From NCBI GenBank assembly GCA_002839705.1, contig PGYO01000012.1, positions 2,909-34,908 on the forward strand: a stretch of DNA of 32,000 nucleotides, written 5' to 3'. Shown piece after piece: positions 9,511 to 25,713 of the stretch; positions within the stretch are counted from its first letter, which is position 1, and every line of letters begins with the position of its first letter. A model generated the notes under the pieces. The model was not told where the DNA came from, did no database searches, and was given only the letters and a program-made list of their open reading frames with translations. Origin of the DNA: Methanobacteriales archaeon HGW-Methanobacteriales-1. Lineage in GTDB: Archaea > Methanobacteriota > Methanobacteria > Methanobacteriales > Methanobacteriaceae. Both the position numbers and the translations under genes were made by a program.

Positions 9511-10329
9511 ATGCCTATCGACCAAAAAACATGGAATTCATTGAAAACAATGGGATTAACTGATTATGAGGCCACTACTTATCTGGCTTTGACCTCCATG
9601 ATCTCAGGCACAGCTACCGAAATTAGTATGGCCTCCAAAGTCCCTAGATCTCGAGTATATGACATACTGAAGAATATGGCCCGTAAAGGATTTGTGGAAA
9701 TTGAAAGAGGCAGACCATTAAAATATACAGTGGTTTCCCCCGCTGAAGTTTTTTATAGAAATAAGCAGAAATTACTGGAGGATCTGGAAGAAGCTGAATT
9801 GGATCTCACCAGTACCTATGAAAGCCAAATTTCCAAATTACCAGCACCCATATGGCTTATTCATGGTCCTGAAAAAATTATTCGCAAAGAAATGGAAATT
9901 ATAACTCGGGCCAAGGAAAGCATTAATATACGGGCTGGTTTCATGTTCAAAGAAGAGGCAGAGAATCTTAAAGAAAAGATTAATCAGGCCGCACGCAGGG
10001 GAGTAAAAACGAAAATAATGGCCGCTCCCTTTACTGTTATTGATGATAAAAAAATCCATCTATCCAAGGAATTGAAGGGAATAAAGGCGGAAGTTAGAAT
10101 TTACCAGATACCATTCGTTAAAATGATTGTCCGGGACGGTAAAGAAATGATGCTCATATTTTCCAAATTTTCAGGAGAAGAGAAGAAGGCCGTAGCCCAA
10201 AGTGCCATTGGTGTCTGGAATCAGTATCCGGAAATCGCTCAAAACTATGCCAATGTATTTGAGAATATGTGGGAAGGGGATATGCCTAAAAGACCAGAAA
10301 AATTTAAAAAAAATAGTTTTAAAGATTAA
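9511..10329 (+). CDS. TrmB-family transcriptional regulator
   Basis: N-terminal winged HTH LGLTDYEATTYLALTSMISGTATEISMASKVPRSRVYDILKNMARKGFVE is typical of TrmB. The 272-aa length includes a C-terminal effector-like domain. Confidence 0.85.
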   Translation: MPIDQKTWNSLKTMGLTDYEATTYLALTSMISGTATEISMASKVPRSRVYDILKNMARKGFVEIERGRPLKYTVVSPAEVFYRNKQKLLEDLEEAELDLTSTYESQISKLPAPIWLIHGPEKIIRKEMEIITRAKESINIRAGFMFKEEAENLKEKINQAARRGVKTKIMAAPFTVIDDKKIHLSKELKGIKAEVRIYQIPFVKMIVRDGKEMMLIFSKFSGEEKKAVAQSAIGVWNQYPEIAQNYANVFENMWEGDMPKRPEKFKKNSFKD

Positions 10330-12541: not shown

Positions 12542-12562
12542 TTATAACTTATAACTTATAAT
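12542..12562. repeat. array of 3 tandem 7-bp units (TTATAAC TTATAAC TTATAAT)
   Basis: Read directly from the sequence. It lies 107-127 bp upstream of the parA-like start codon. Confidence 0.8.
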
Positions 12563-12668
12563 TAAATATATTAAATAATATTAATATAGATAAAGGGACT
12601 TTAAATATGTGAAAGATGTTAATTTATTCTCATAAATATTTAATAACAATCTGTGGGAGGGTTTTTTT

Positions 12669-13439
12669 ATGGGAGAAGTAATTTCAATAATTAATCAAAA
12701 AGGTGGCTGTGGAAAAACAACCACTGCTGTGAACTTATCAACTGCACTAGCCCTTATGGATAAAAAGGTTCTGGTAATAGATTTAGACCCACAAGGTAAT
12801 GCTACAACTGGTTTTGGAATTCAAAAAGGCGAACTGGAAAATACTATTTACACTGTGTTGAGCAGGCAAAATAACATGGAAGAAGTAATGATTCCTACTA
12901 TTTTAGATGATTTGTACATTGTCCCCAGTAATATTTCACTTAGTGGAGCTGAAGTAGAACTTAGTAGAGAGATTGGATATCATTCTATTCTTCAAGATGC
13001 TATAAAAAGTGTAAAGGGAATGTTTGATTATATTTTAATTGATGTTCCCCCGTCTCTTGGCATACTCACCCTAAATGCACTTGTGGCATCAGATAGTGTT
13101 ATCATTCCTATTCAGGCGGAATATTATGCTTTGGAAGGAATGGCTGACTTATTAAAAACTATAAATCTTGTTGAAGAGCGTTTAAAGACTTCAGCTAACA
13201 TTAAGGGTATTCTAATTACTTTATATGATTCTAGGACACGCTTAGCCAGAGATGTTCACCAAGAGGTAAAGAAATATTTTGGTGAGGAAGAATACATATT
13301 TAAAACTACAATTCCTCGTAATGTTCGTTTGGCAGAGGCACCTAGCTATGGAAAACCATGTATATTATATGATCAGGAAAGTGCAGGCACTACTGCCTAT
13401 TTAAAACTGGCTCAGGAACTCATTAACCGGGATGGTTAA
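12669..13439 (+). CDS. parA: ParA/Soj-family partition ATPase
   Basis: Deviant Walker A NQKGGCGKTTT. The protein is colinear end to end with chromosomal Soj proteins as I recall them (DLDPQGNAT, IDVPPSLG, IPIQAEYYALEG, TIPRNVRLAEAPSYGKP). GGGAGGG precedes the ATG. Confidence 0.92.
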   Translation: MGEVISIINQKGGCGKTTTAVNLSTALALMDKKVLVIDLDPQGNATTGFGIQKGELENTIYTVLSRQNNMEEVMIPTILDDLYIVPSNISLSGAEVELSREIGYHSILQDAIKSVKGMFDYILIDVPPSLGILTLNALVASDSVIIPIQAEYYALEGMADLLKTINLVEERLKTSANIKGILITLYDSRTRLARDVHQEVKKYFGEEEYIFKTTIPRNVRLAEAPSYGKPCILYDQESAGTTAYLKLAQELINRDG

Positions 13440-13944
13440 TATGGCCCGTCGTAAATCTCCACCATCAAAAAGCGCTGGCCTGGGAATGGGCCTGGATGCT
13501 TTGATTAAGGCCAAAACCCGGGATGAGAATAATGAAATTGAAGAAAATCAACTAAAAAATGGTTCTGATGAAAATGAAATAACTGAAGATTCTGATGACA
13601 TTAAAGTTTTTAAATCACAGGAATCTAAAAAATCTGTTTCCAAACCTTCTGATAGTGCAGCATCCAAAGCTGAAAAGTCAAATAAATCTTTAATTTCAAA
13701 ATCAACAACTACCAATGATGTAAACGAATCAGCTTCTGCTGAAACTCAGAGAATAAATATTGTGATTAGTGATGTTAAAAAGAATCCACGAATTACTTTA
13801 TGGTCTTCTCGCTCGGCAGCAGTTTTAAGATATCTCAAAAAAACACAGCCTGAGTTTAGTATTAGTAAAGAAGCATCTAAATTAATTGAAGAATCAGTAA
13901 AAGAGAAATATCCTGAGATCTGGGATCTTTTTGATGACTTATAA
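13432..13944 (+). CDS. ParA-partner adaptor candidate: ParB-like N-terminal peptide, acidic/Ser-rich linker and a possible ribbon-helix-helix C-terminus
   Basis: The start is either ATG 13432, overlapping the parA stop (13437-13439), or ATG 13441, 1 nt after it. The N-terminus MARRKSPPSKSAGLGMGLDALIKAK resembles the ParB/Spo0J N-terminal GLGxGLxAL peptide. No ParB/Srx or HTH domain is present. The tail PRITLWSSRSAAVLRYLKKTQPEFSISKEASKLIEESVKEKY fits a strand-helix-helix pattern. Confidence 0.7.
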   Translation: MVNMARRKSPPSKSAGLGMGLDALIKAKTRDENNEIEENQLKNGSDENEITEDSDDIKVFKSQESKKSVSKPSDSAASKAEKSNKSLISKSTTTNDVNESASAETQRINIVISDVKKNPRITLWSSRSAAVLRYLKKTQPEFSISKEASKLIEESVKEKYPEIWDLFDDL

Positions 13945-13984
13945 TTATTTTTTTAGATTTCTTTAATTTTTTTCTAAATTTTTA

Positions 13985-14019
13985 TTATAAGTTATAACTT
14001 CTAACTTATATGTTATAAT
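13985..14019. repeat. array of 5 tandem 7-bp units (TTATAAG TTATAAC TTCTAAC TTATATG TTATAAT)
   Basis: Read directly from the sequence. It starts 41 bp after the stop of the adaptor gene and contains the 12-bp perfect palindrome AAGTTATAACTT. Confidence 0.8.
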
Positions 14020-14109: not shown

Positions 14110-15276
14110 TTAACTAAACATGTCTAAAGGTGTTTGATACATACCTTTAAGCTTTATAAATGGTTCAGCACGTTTTACTGCAACACCTAGCTTTTTTAAT
14201 TCTTCTAACTTAGTAAATTGATGCTTTTTACGTATGGCAATAATTTTTCGAGCTGAAATAGTTCCAATTCCAGGGACTCGGATTAAATCACGATATGGGG
14301 CCTGATTGATTTCTACAGGAAAAATATCCATTGCTCGGGCAGCAGAATGCTTTGGATCTTCGTCTACATCTAAAAGTCCATTGTCATGAAAAATAAGCTC
14401 TTCTAACTTAAAATTATATGAATTTAAAAGTGCATCGGCTTGATAAAGTCTATTGGACCTATTATGATGGGGTTCTTCTCTGGATTGCAGAGGGGTATCT
14501 TCTAAAGGTTTGAAAGCACTAAAATAACTTCTTTTAACATCTAACTTATCATAAAGCCATTTGACTCTATTTAAAATATCTTCATCCGTTTCATCAGTGG
14601 CCCCTACAATCATCTGAGTGGTCTGGCCCGAAGGAGCATAAAGTGGATCTTTATTATGGATATTTTTTATCCATTTTAAACGACGCATAATGTCTTTTTG
14701 ATAGTCTTTGGTGCTGGAAAGTTCTGCCAGACCATCTGGAGTTGCGGCCTCAATATTAACACTGACTCGATTGGCCAAGCCCATGGCCCTTTTAATGAGG
14801 TCTTTTGATGAACCTGGAAGAATTTTAAGGTGTATATATCCAGAATAACCATGTTCTAATCTTAAAAGTCTAGCCACTTCCACTACTTTTTCCATGGAGA
14901 TGTCTATGTCTCCAGAAATTCCAGAACTTAAAAATAACCCTTCCACATATTTGTTTTGATAATAATTCAAGAAAACACGGGTTAATTCTTCAGGACTGAG
15001 CTCCATTCTGGTGAAATTTCGTTTACTATGATTCACACAGTACTTACAATCATTAATGCACTTATTAGTCATTAAAACCTTGAATAATGGGACTTGACAT
15101 CCTCCACTAACTGTACTGTAGTAAATTCCAGGTAAATTCGGTTTCGACTTAGTCTGATGATTTACATAATCACAGAGATCAAACTGGGCAGTATCACTCA
15201 GGACCTGCATTTTACGCATGGTATTCATTGAATAATTATTTGTTTGGATAACTATAATTGTCTTATGGTAGGCCAT
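14110..15276 (-). CDS. radical SAM protein with C-terminal helix-hairpin-helix (putative DNA modification/repair radical SAM family)
   Basis: CxxxCxxC in CINDCKYCVNH, plus VEGLFLSSGI and RLLRLEHGYSGYIHLKILPG blocks. C-terminal HhH IRVPGIGTISARKIIAIRK. The true start is probably internal (MRKMQVLSDTAQFDLC). Confidence 0.82.
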   Translation of the reverse strand: MAYHKTIIVIQTNNYSMNTMRKMQVLSDTAQFDLCDYVNHQTKSKPNLPGIYYSTVSGGCQVPLFKVLMTNKCINDCKYCVNHSKRNFTRMELSPEELTRVFLNYYQNKYVEGLFLSSGISGDIDISMEKVVEVARLLRLEHGYSGYIHLKILPGSSKDLIKRAMGLANRVSVNIEAATPDGLAELSSTKDYQKDIMRRLKWIKNIHNKDPLYAPSGQTTQMIVGATDETDEDILNRVKWLYDKLDVKRSYFSAFKPLEDTPLQSREEPHHNRSNRLYQADALLNSYNFKLEELIFHDNGLLDVDEDPKHSAARAMDIFPVEINQAPYRDLIRVPGIGTISARKIIAIRKKHQFTKLEELKKLGVAVKRAEPFIKLKGMYQTPLDMFS

Positions 15277-24166: not shown

Positions 24167-24754
24167 TCATAATATACCTTTAGTACTAGGTATCTGGTCA
24201 TGTTTCACCTGCAAAGCGTCCTTAAGAGCTCTGGCTAGGGCCTTAAAAAGTGCTTCAATCTGGTGATGGTCATTTTCTCCTTCTACCTTGGCATTGATAT
24301 TAATACGGGCGCTGCTGGCAAATGATTCCAGAAAATGTTCCACATTCTCGGTGGATAATTCACCAACTTTTGCTTGAGTAAATTGCATATCCATAACACA
24401 ATAGCTTCTTCCACCAATATCCACGGCCACCATGGCCAATGCTTCGTCCATGGGCACCAATGAATGAGATATTCTTTCAATTCCCTTTTTATCTCCAATT
24501 GCCTGGTTAAATACCTCTCCTAAAAGTATTCCCACATCTTCCACGGTGTGATGGTCATCTACACTCACATCGCCGGTAGCTTTAACTTCCAGATCGAAAA
24601 ATCCATGTCTGGCAAATGATTCTAACATGTGGTCAAAGAATTCCACCCCAGTTTGGATATTATAATTTCCCTGACCATCCAAATCCAGAATGATTTCAAT
24701 ATCAGTTTCAGAGGTTTTCCTGCTTAAGCTCTTTTTCCTTTTTTTCATCGGCAT
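24167..24754 (-). CDS. hisB: imidazoleglycerol-phosphate dehydratase
   Basis: 195 aa with [40 protein letters not shown] and a C-terminal PSTKG. Confidence 0.95.
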
Positions 24755-24947
24755 CTCTCACGATTTTTATAGCATCTGCGCGACATTCACTGGCGCATAA
24801 TGTGCAAACATGGCAGAAGGTTAAATCCTTTACTTCAGCTTTCCCTGCAGTGTTTTTTTCCCAGATTCTATATCCTTTTGGACAAATTTCCATGCAGTTA
24901 CCGCAACCAGTGCACTTTTCTTGATCCACTTCTATTCGCATATCCAT
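24708..24947 (-). CDS. 2x[4Fe-4S] ferredoxin-domain protein
   Basis: Two CxxCxxCxxxC motifs: [12 protein letters not shown] and [11 protein letters not shown]. The start is probably the second ATG (24941), given the spacing from GAGG. The 3' end overlaps the hisB 5' end. Confidence 0.8.
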
Positions 24948-24961
24948 TCCTCATGATATAA

Positions 24962-24989
24962 TGATAACTTATAAGTTAAAACTTATAAC
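24962..24989. repeat. array of 4 tandem 7-bp units (TGATAAC TTATAAG TTAAAAC TTATAAC)
   Basis: Read directly from the sequence. It contains the 14-bp perfect palindrome TAACTTATAAGTTA (24965-24978). It sits between the ModE-like gene and the ferredoxin-hisB pair. Confidence 0.8.
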
Positions 24990-25020: not shown

Positions 25021-25713
25021 TTAGCCTTTAACTACAGCGAGTGAAACTGCCTTAAACCCTATAAAAACAATTTTTCCCAGATCTAATTCTAATTTTTCCC
25101 TAGAAAATTCTGTAACATCAACATCTAGAGTTTCTTTATTACTCAATTGGATTTCAAGCCTTACCATATCGTCGTGAAGTTTTAAACCTACTATTTTTCC
25201 TTCTATTATATTTCTAACACTAGATTCTTGAGGTTCGAGCATAACAATAATATCTTCAGGACTTATAAGTAGAATTACATCTTCTCCAAGTTTAAAATCC
25301 GGGGTCATGGGCAATGTGATGTCTTCCCCATTGAAGTCAATATGCATTACCTTTCCTTCTTCGTCAATTATGGAAATTTTTCCACTTAATTCATTGGTTT
25401 GGGAAACTTTTTGAAGAACTTTCTCAACTTTGGTGTATTCTTTTACAATCTCTTTACCCAGTGAAGATAGCTTGCTTCCACCTCCACCTCCGCGGCCACC
25501 TCGAGTGGTGAAAACTACTCCATGGCCTAGTGTTTCTTCCATTACTTCAATGTATTTTAGGGCAGTTCTGTATGGAATTTTTGTTTTTTTGGAGGCATTC
25601 ATAATAGAGCCACAATTATCAATCTTCTTTAAAAGCTCAAACCTGCGGCTATCCATGAGCATATTCTTTCCATTGATATTCAAATTGTACTCTGCTTTAC
25701 GTGCACGGGTCAT
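25021..25713 (-). CDS. ModE-like regulator (N-terminal HTH plus a single Mop/TOBE-like domain)
   Basis: ELLKKIDNCGSIMNASKKTKIPYRTALKYIEVME...TTRGGRGGGGGSKLSSLGKEIV is the ModE N-domain pattern, including the Gly-rich turn. The C-terminal SVRNIIEGKIVGLKLHDDMVRLEIQL is TOBE/Mop-like. Confidence 0.78.
   Translation of the reverse strand: MTRARKAEYNLNINGKNMLMDSRRFELLKKIDNCGSIMNASKKTKIPYRTALKYIEVMEETLGHGVVFTTRGGRGGGGGSKLSSLGKEIVKEYTKVEKVLQKVSQTNELSGKISIIDEEGKVMHIDFNGEDITLPMTPDFKLGEDVILLISPEDIIVMLEPQESSVRNIIEGKIVGLKLHDDMVRLEIQLSNKETLDVDVTEFSREKLELDLGKIVFIGFKAVSLAVVKG

Follow-up and report, generated by a model that had tools for sequence, protein, structure and literature searches.

A segAB-type partition operon of Methanobacteriales with candidate TTATAAS centromere sites and a ParB-type peptide in SegB

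In a stretch of 32 kb of contig PGYO01000012.1 from Methanobacteriales archaeon HGW-Methanobacteriales-1 (the window, to which all coordinates refer unless another locus is named), a gene encoding a Soj/ParA-type ATPase is directly followed by a gene for a small protein, and the pair is bracketed by phased arrays of the hexamer TTATAA. We interpret this cassette, with a probability of roughly 0.8, as a chromosomal segAB partition operon that would use TTATAAS arrays (S being C or G) as its segS sites and whose SegB would contact SegA through a ParB-type peptide. Direct observations carry this reading: both proteins have clear homologues among partition proteins, the peptide motif is conserved within the SegB family, and the arrays show a conserved and specific association with segAB. 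A preliminary description of this DNA, made from the sequence alone, had proposed a hybrid partition module, and its claims are taken up where the results bear on them.

Results

The 167-aa product of the second gene, which begins MARRKSPPSKSAGLGMGLDALIKAK, did not match any Pfam or NCBIfam model at E<=0.01, nor ParBc or any helix-turn-helix (HTH) model at E<=1, in agreement with the earlier claim that the ParB/Srx and HTH domains are absent from this partner. A phmmer search of the Protein Data Bank (PDB) retrieved only SegB of Saccharolobus solfataricus (7DUV, E 9.8e-8; 7DV2, E 2.3e-7), and the alignment to the ribbon-helix-helix (RHH) domain of that protein spans partner residues 90-164 with 31% identity. 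A family profile made from 23 diverse homologues matched 7DUV at E 2.6e-13 (chain residues 9-98). In the PDB searches ParG and omega gave no match at E<=10, the only matches being SegB. The published SegB signature, K/R-D/N-P-K/R-I-G/T-V/L-W-S (PMC12139799), is present as K114-N-P-R-I-T-L-W-S122, and N115, P116, R117, I118, W121 and S122 are invariant in the 23 homologues. R117 aligns with K52 of S. solfataricus SegB; K52 is essential to DNA binding, and its euryarchaeal counterpart is Arg (PMC8682754). The S. solfataricus protein was established by crystallography as an RHH centromere-binding protein, and its disordered N-terminus is required to stimulate the ATPase of SegA (PMC8682754). The AlphaFold2 (AF2) monomer of the window protein contains a helix at 97-114, the extended segment NPRITLW and helices at 123-134, 143-156 and 158-165, which is the element order of S. 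solfataricus SegB; the confidence score (predicted local distance difference test, pLDDT) was 61 for the full-length model, 78 for the C-terminal domain alone and 45-60 for the linker, the N-terminal region also scoring low. The homology to the solved SegB structures thus bears out the RHH-type DNA-binding C-terminus that had been proposed as a strand-helix-helix tail of about 45 aa, except for its size, as the folded domain comprises about 70 aa (a helix, the strand region and three helices).

Phyletic mapping of the partner family gave 1587 homologues at E<=0.01, of 97-192 aa, most of them from Methanobacteriales (mainly Methanobacterium, Methanothermobacter, Methanobrevibacter and Methanosphaera-type). 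They form 284 clusters (50% identity, E<=0.001), Archaeoglobaceae and Methanosaeta members included. Euryarchaeal SegB clades, among them those of Methanobacteriales, have already been described, always adjoining segA (PMC5120986, PMC12139799, PMC12284271). Given these clades and the SegB homology, the cassette is, judged by its sequences, the segAB orthologue of Methanobacteriales, a known system and not a new family; the suggestion of a possibly uncharacterised partner family merely analogous to SegAB was not upheld. Since SegB has no model in Pfam or NCBIfam, the family looks "unknown" and is often misnamed in NCBI. The NCBI record of the exact window SegB and those of many orthologues carry the name "AAA family ATPase" despite the lack of an ATPase domain, a misnaming that has probably spread from the neighbouring segA. 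It is also worth mentioning that one locus binned as "Bacteroidaceae bacterium" (L033, CAVDAS010000003.1) encodes a Methanobrevibacter-type segAB with 80% identity in the SegB C-terminus, and is likely a mis-binned archaeal contig.

The product of the first gene, SegA, matched the Pfam model AAA_31 at E 2.3e-65, as well as the CbiA, ParA and MinD models, and its Walker A motif reads KGGCGKTT. Its best PDB match was ParA of M. xanthus (8RAY, E 4.3e-76, 49% identity, full length), and the Soj proteins of H. pylori (E 3.5e-62) and T. thermophilus (E 2.1e-60) were likewise matched along the full length. Sulfolobus SegA (7DUT), a member of the same superfamily as Soj/ParA, was matched at E 2.1e-20 and over residues 4-170 only; the window protein may be its orthologue or a Soj recruited separately. 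In view of the full-length bacterial matches the earlier designation as a Soj-type ParA is correct, and these comparisons indicate that SegA of Methanobacteriales has a much more bacterial character than the crenarchaeal SegA studied so far.

The conserved C-terminal domain of SegB is reached through a linker of 20-110 residues after the N-terminal peptide that is unalignable and variable in length among the 23 homologues; together with the pLDDT values this supports the disordered, low-complexity linker of the preliminary description. The peptide itself is strongly conserved. Its motif, G13-L-G-M-G-L-D-A-L-I22, presents the hydrophobic/glycine framework LGxGLxxL, and L14, G15, G17, L18, L21 and I22 are invariant in the same homologues. 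The family consensus is LG(R/K)GLDALI, most members having GLG(R/K)GLD(A/S)LI or ALG(R/K)GLDALI. The motif is recognisable in 183 members, with R (65), K (62), M (37) or L (15) at its centre, that is, R/K in 127 of the 183 and M/L in 52. When a 27-position profile of the peptide was compared with 177,635 distinct PDB sequences, only two matches were obtained, both at extreme N-termini: residues 1-18 of T. thermophilus Spo0J (1VZ0; MSRKPSGLGRGLEALLPK, E 0.0013) and residues 6-15 of Caulobacter ParB (6T1F). No ParB in the PDB matched SegB outside the first 18 residues. Family invariance and these matches support a peptide of ParB type. Of the resemblance to ParB that had been seen in GLGxGLxAL, the framework holds and the central Arg/Lys does not, its place being taken here by Met16; as the basic residue needed for ATPase stimulation (PMC12462528) is missing, the term "type Ia activation peptide" is not supported as it was stated.

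The eight residues that follow the motif contain on average 2.87 Lys/Arg in SegB proteins with an M/L centre vs 0.83 in those with an R/K centre (P0001-P0265; not corrected for phylogeny), a basic cluster that, at the level of sequence, is reminiscent of the KKKRK cluster of Sulfolobales. From this distribution we infer that the activating charge may have been relocated from the motif centre to the K-x-K-T-R cluster behind it, and the flanking cluster would then substitute for the missing central Arg/Lys.

SegB of Sulfolobales starts with MSELDFLLKKKRK and lacks LG(R/K)G; the N-termini of that group are near-invariant, MSELD(F/L)(L/I)(L/I/F)-(K/R)3-5 (P0266-P0319), and have at most an "LDxLL + basic" half in common with the tip of the window SegB. 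This start looks like the latter half of GLDALI-KxK, a hint that the SegA-binding tips share an origin. Outside Methanobacteriales, a SegB-like protein of Archaeoglobaceae (P0186) has a canonical ParB-type tip, MKRLGRGLDAI, and one of Methanosaeta (322 aa; P0150/P0322) only a degenerate tip, MTVKKALGDKAEDLF. Such proteins do not fit easily with the two late transfers from Sulfolobaceae that have been proposed in the literature. The N-terminus of euryarchaeal SegB has been reported to be poorly conserved relative to Sulfolobales (PMC12139799). A literature search, in which subscription journals were incompletely covered, found no paper describing the ParB-like SegB motif or a segS of Methanobacteriales.

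The arrays of the window are formed by heptads, each being the hexamer plus a spacer nucleotide. The upstream array reads TTATAAC TTATAAC TTATAAT, a perfect 20-mer match. The downstream array begins 40 nt past the segB stop, inside a convergent gene-end spacer, and reads TTATAAG TTATAAC TTCTAAC TTATATG TTATAAT; the five units that had been described are present, three hexamers being perfect and two having one mismatch. A third array, 11 kb from segB, reads TGATAAC TTATAAG TTAAAAC TTATAAC and has the stop of a TOBE/ModE-like gene (25021..25713, -) on one side and, on the other, the start of the gene for a 79-aa 4Fe-4S ferredoxin (24708..24947, -), with hisB following it; the preliminary description had spoken of three arrays and provided no coordinates for this one. 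Along the 32 kb, double units with up to one mismatch were observed 14 times vs 0.19 expected from dinucleotide shuffles, and triple units with up to three mismatches six times vs 0.05 expected, all of them confined to these three places. The Sulfolobus motif TCTAGA-S-TCTAGA was absent from the window, and the 16-bp parS palindrome gave there a single match with three mismatches, inside hisB, which is at chance level.

From GTDB contigs representing one genome per species 80 loci were fetched, of which 63 contained an intact segA-segB pair. A self-identity scan at a shift of 7, with no motif preset, recovered TTATAA[CG] arrays upstream of segA in most of the 63 loci and downstream of segB in many. 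In 54 of them the interval from -300 to +250 bp around the operon contained TTATAA-S-TTATAA with up to one mismatch; most of the other loci are from Methanobrevibacter, with arrays 350-500 bp upstream of segA. Counted by side, 52 of the 63 loci had arrays ahead of segA and 36 had arrays after segB. Array density fell with distance from the operon, from 7.2 per kb at 0-300 bp to 1.9 at 300-600 bp, 0.34 at 600-1000 bp and 0.00-0.14 beyond 1 kb, and the two genes themselves contained five matches in 78 kb. In non-coding DNA alone the density was 10.0 per kb within 1 kb vs 0.32 per kb beyond (31-fold; 63 species), a contrast tempered by the size of the distal sample, about 78 kb; half of the distal non-coding matches came from one locus. 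In these sampled loci, therefore, heptads do not occur at similar density elsewhere, and the conservation across 63 loci substantiates the proposal that the arrays are the cognate cis site of the cassette.

The seventh position is C/G in 75% of the units, in surroundings of segAB that look AT-rich. In a GC-richer Methanothermobacter locus (L015:4097-4152), eight units in phase separate the thrS stop from segA: TTATAAG TTATAAC TTATAAG ATATAAT TTATAAG TTCTAAA TTCTAAG TTCCAAG. In a Methanobrevibacter metagenome-assembled genome (L041:5660-6510) about 15 triple-unit arrays follow each other at intervals of about 50-57 bp over about 800 bp downstream of segB, with a second cluster at 1718-2058; this field is much larger than the arrays of the window, and by analogy its organisation appears centromere-like. 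The upstream array occupies -127 to -107 in the window; many Methanobacterium loci have theirs at about -60 to -30. Together, these data make the TTATAAS arrays a strong candidate for the SegB site, and predicted centromere, of Methanobacteriales.

Genomic context

The features of the cassette are collected in Table 1. The segA stop codon (TAA) occupies 13437-13439, and segB may start at an ATG at 13432 (170 aa, overlapping segA by 8 nt) or at 13441 (167 aa, after a gap of 1 nt), its stop being at 13942-13944. The positions that had been given for the ParA reading frame, for both candidate ATGs and for the two flanking arrays all hold. An abutting or overlapping segA-segB order is common to the 63 related loci.

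Table 1. Coordinates of the segAB cassette and of the heptad arrays in the window
Feature	Position	Strand	Basis or remarks
Upstream heptad array	12542..12562	no strand	3 phased units at a distance of 107 nt from the segA ATG; predicted to be bound by SegB as segS and operator
segA, 256-aa ATPase of Soj/ParA type with deviant Walker A	12669..13439	+	Pfam AAA_31 and PDB matches
segB orthologue, 167 aa	13441..13944	+	phmmer and family-profile matches to SegB 7DUV
SegB N-terminal peptide, aa 1-26, MARRKSPPSKSAGLGMGLDALIKAKT	13441..13518	+	ParB-type ParA-binding motif with central Met, then K-x-K-T-R
SegB linker, aa 27-95, acidic/Ser/Lys-rich, variable in length, predicted disordered	13519..13725	+	Gapped alignment, AF2 pLDDT
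SegB C-terminal DNA-binding domain, aa 96-167, RHH type by homology	13726..13941	+	Alignment to S. solfataricus SegB
Downstream heptad array	13985..14019	no strand	5 phased units between convergent gene ends; predicted segS
Third heptad array	24962..24989	no strand	4 units; candidate dispersed segS site

The gene immediately upstream of segAB is thrS, and the thrS-segAB synteny recurs in Methanothermobacter. Other neighbours are likewise housekeeping genes (argS, ilvD, hisB, mtd, fae-hps and a cobyrinate-type amidase), a chromosomal context as had been supposed. The next gene downstream lies on the minus strand at 14110..15276, converges with segB and specifies a radical-SAM protein whose C-terminus has a helix-hairpin-helix DNA-binding motif (Pfam Radical_SAM, 8.5e-15; HHH_3, 1.2e-9). 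Two genes upstream of segA, at 9511-10329 (+), there is a TrmB-family regulator with a weak match to a PLD-like C-terminal domain and no apparent link to segAB. The neighbours that were scanned included no recognised segC-like gene next to segAB, and neither Orc1/Cdc6 nor an origin turned up among 20 neighbouring open reading frames. A scan for bacterial-type promoters and terminators was uninformative, the host being an archaeon.

Discussion

The data can be accommodated in the following working model. SegB would dimerise via its C-terminal RHH domain, and we infer that it binds the heptads: successive dimers would sit on TTATAA hexamers at 7-bp spacing and form a wrapped complex, as Sulfolobus SegB does on TCTAGA-S-TCTAGA. 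Its targets would be the arrays upstream of segA and downstream of segB and at least one at 11 kb, and the upstream array is probably also an operator for the autoregulation (repression) of segAB. Long disordered linkers would offer many copies of the GLGMGLDALI-KAKTR helix to SegA, and this peptide is predicted to bind and activate the ATPase, with the ParB-type helix docking at the dimer interface of DNA-bound SegA-ATP. Such docking would tether the segS complex to nucleoid-bound SegA and trigger or tune ATP turnover, leading to the separation of sister chromosomes. A left-handed protein spiral of SegB on DNA has been described (PMC8682754), and a step of 7 bp, which by analogy corresponds to a rotation of about 240 degrees between RHH dimers, fits a spiral of this kind.

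Several results weigh against this interpretation. With regard to the fold, the RHH ribbon, which requires a dimer, is missing from the AF2 monomer models; in a Foldseek search the C-terminal model ranked 7DV2 first without reaching significance (E 1.9, template modelling score 0.45), and the full-length model had no match in the PDB. Because a monomer cannot form the ribbon and Foldseek reached only E 1.9, the fold identity of SegB rests on sequence homology. With regard to the peptide, the R13A variant of M. xanthus ParB largely keeps binding and nearly abolishes ATPase stimulation (PMC12462528), and Met16 occupies the corresponding central Arg/Lys position in the window SegB, so that activation by exactly the ParB mechanism is not assured here. 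R13 is predicted to contact Y81, E82, D110 and E117 of M. xanthus ParA (PMC12462528), to which Y61, T62, S90 and E97 of the window SegA are equivalent; only Y61 and E97 of the four Arg-pocket residues are kept, T62 and S90 replacing E82 and D110. Y61 and E97 are invariant in 63 SegA sequences. An acidic residue at SegA position 62 or 90 was found in 0 of 11 loci whose SegB has an M/L centre vs 20 of 52 with an R/K centre; this covariation of the pocket with the motif centre is weak, at best suggestive, and because it is phylogenetically confounded we did not count it as evidence. As for the sites, TTATAA resembles the archaeal TATA box.

It could be argued that the likeness of the N-peptide to ParB is due to chance or convergence, and that SegB contacts SegA otherwise, for instance through the basic cluster alone, which may be the case in Sulfolobales, or uses the peptide in another role such as membrane or protein anchoring. 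The motif is short, its best PDB match reached only E 0.0013, the central basic residue is missing in the window SegB, the covariation with the Arg-pocket residues is weak, and SegB of Sulfolobales still activates SegA without LG(R/K)G (PMC8682754). We nevertheless consider this explanation unlikely: the motif lies at the very N-terminal end of the protein, as it does in ParB, hundreds of homologues keep it unchanged beside a hypervariable linker, its canonical form, GLG(R/K)GLD(A/S)LI, occurs in most family members, the profile matches in the PDB are limited to ParB/Spo0J, and the cognate ATPase is 49% identical to a ParA with a mapped pocket for the ParB motif (PMC12462528).

Quite unlikely, too, is that the arrays are transcriptional operators only, for autorepression of segAB and for the ferredoxin-hisB operon, with no centromere role. 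The location of the upstream arrays in the promoter/leader region and of the third array upstream of a gene start would suit such a function, repression is a second role of the RHH proteins omega and ParG, and a regulatory role of the Sulfolobus sites has been mentioned as possible (PMC5120986). Yet arrays are also found downstream of segB in 36 of the 63 loci, the downstream array of the window lies where two genes converge, with nothing there to control, the field of about 15 arrays extends over about 800 bp in the Methanobrevibacter locus L041, and the partner of SegB is a segregation ATPase. Moreover, as one set of sites serves both as operator and as centromere in type Ib systems, the two readings are compatible.

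It is very unlikely that the repeats are generic AT-rich promoter, TATA-like or low-complexity intergenic DNA unrelated to SegB. The resemblance of TTATAA to an archaeal TATA element and the visibly AT-rich intergenic DNA around segAB would be in line with this, but the shuffled sequences predict 0.05-0.19 matches where 6-14 were observed, the 7-bp phasing is strict with C/G as spacer in 75% of the units, non-coding DNA near segAB is enriched 31-fold across 63 species, the arrays persist in the GC-richer Methanothermobacter locus, and some of them lie in a terminator-side spacer. Finally, that the cassette is part of a plasmid that has integrated, or of a mobile element, and is not the chromosome's own system, as a ParA plus RHH partner, the typical layout of type Ib plasmids, could suggest, is hardly credible in view of the housekeeping neighbours, the thrS-segAB synteny in Methanothermobacter, the homologues on contigs of 0.7-2.7 Mb, and the fact that no integrase or repeat boundaries turned up, though no search was aimed at them.

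To the known SegAB system the chromosomal operon described here adds testable elements, namely a ParB-type peptide on an RHH centromere-binding protein, its Met/Leu variants and a predicted methanogen centromere. To our knowledge, chromosome segregation in euryarchaea is essentially unstudied experimentally, all SegAB experiments having been done in Sulfolobales. The TTATAA(C/G) arrays flanking segAB, together with dispersed ones, constitute a concrete centromere prediction in a group where the Sulfolobus motif had failed, namely the euryarchaea (PMC12284271). The ParB-type peptide on an RHH protein incapable of forming a CTP-gated clamp would provide a mechanistic bridge to bacterial ParABS and raises the question of how peptides are juxtaposed, and the ATPase activated, without such a clamp; the natural variants with a Met/Leu centre are ready-made probes of the activation mechanism described in M. 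xanthus.

A wider proposal, which we put forward tentatively and at somewhat less than even odds, is that the ParA-binding peptide has served as a portable module. In Methanobacteriales, Archaeoglobaceae and Methanosaeta, euryarchaeal SegB would combine a genuine ParB-type helix with an RHH domain unrelated to ParB and be paired with a Soj of bacterial type; the MSELDFLLKKK start of Sulfolobales would be a truncated derivative, the charge would have been relocated to K-x-K-T-R in the lineage of the window, and the TTATAA(C/G) arrays would be the first defined methanogen centromere. If so, this would supply the long-sought mechanism of SegA activation by SegB, and the euryarchaeal form would be ancestral, or the product of a ParB/SegB domain exchange, and would not derive from a transfer from Sulfolobaceae.

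Comparison with known partition systems

The closest counterpart of the window operon is SegAB of Sulfolobales, a system that the original work is said to have called a "hybrid partition machine". There too, a two-gene operon has segB abutting or overlapping segA, and in SegB a disordered N-terminal tail and a linker of variable length precede a C-terminal RHH domain that bears the signature (K/R)(D/N)P(K/R)I(G/T)(V/L)WS, an Arg (R117) being present in the window protein where S. solfataricus SegB has its DNA-contact Lys52. The site of S. acidocaldarius, segS, comprises three 7-bp repeats adjoining segAB (PMC12139799), of the form AGNGTNN, and chromatin immunoprecipitation sequencing of S. solfataricus SegB yielded the motif 5'-TCTAGA-S-TCTAGA-3', whose sites group around segAB, with further ones scattered elsewhere (PMC12284271); the window sites are in a like 7-bp register. 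The common grammar is a palindromic hexamer T-N-N-N-N-A with one C/G as spacer, repeated in a 7-bp register beside segAB and at a dispersed site (11 kb off in the window). The hexamer itself differs, TTATAA vs TCTAGA, and in this regard the Sulfolobus motif finds no sites near segAB in Thermococcus, and euryarchaeal sites had been predicted to differ (PMC12284271). The tips of SegB also differ, the family of the window starting with GLG(R/K/M)GLDALI vs MSELDFLLKKK in Sulfolobales, and the window SegA resembles bacterial Soj (1e-60 to 4e-76) far more than it does S. solfataricus SegA (2e-20, partial match).

With bacterial ParABS the operon shares a ParA, 49% identical to that of M. xanthus, and a partner whose extreme N-terminus, of the type LG(R/K)GL-x-AL, is followed by a disordered region. 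Unlike bacterial ParB, the window SegB has no ParB/Srx CTPase, HTH or C-terminal dimerisation domain, and unlike bacterial ParABS the window has no parS, its DNA binding being predicted to occur via the RHH domain on heptads; with this mode of binding there would be no CTP-gated clamp to juxtapose two peptides.

The type Ib systems, omega-delta of pSM19035 and ParF-ParG of TP228, resemble the window operon in combining a small ParA with an RHH protein, in the flexible N-terminal activating tail of the latter and in the use of iterated repeats as centromere and operator. Omega binds contiguous 7-bp heptads, on which it forms a left-handed protein spiral, and its sites double as operators. Unlike these plasmid systems, the system of the window is chromosomal and conserved across an archaeal order, and its predicted activating peptide is of the sequence type of ParB (type Ia/chromosomal), not of ParG or omega.

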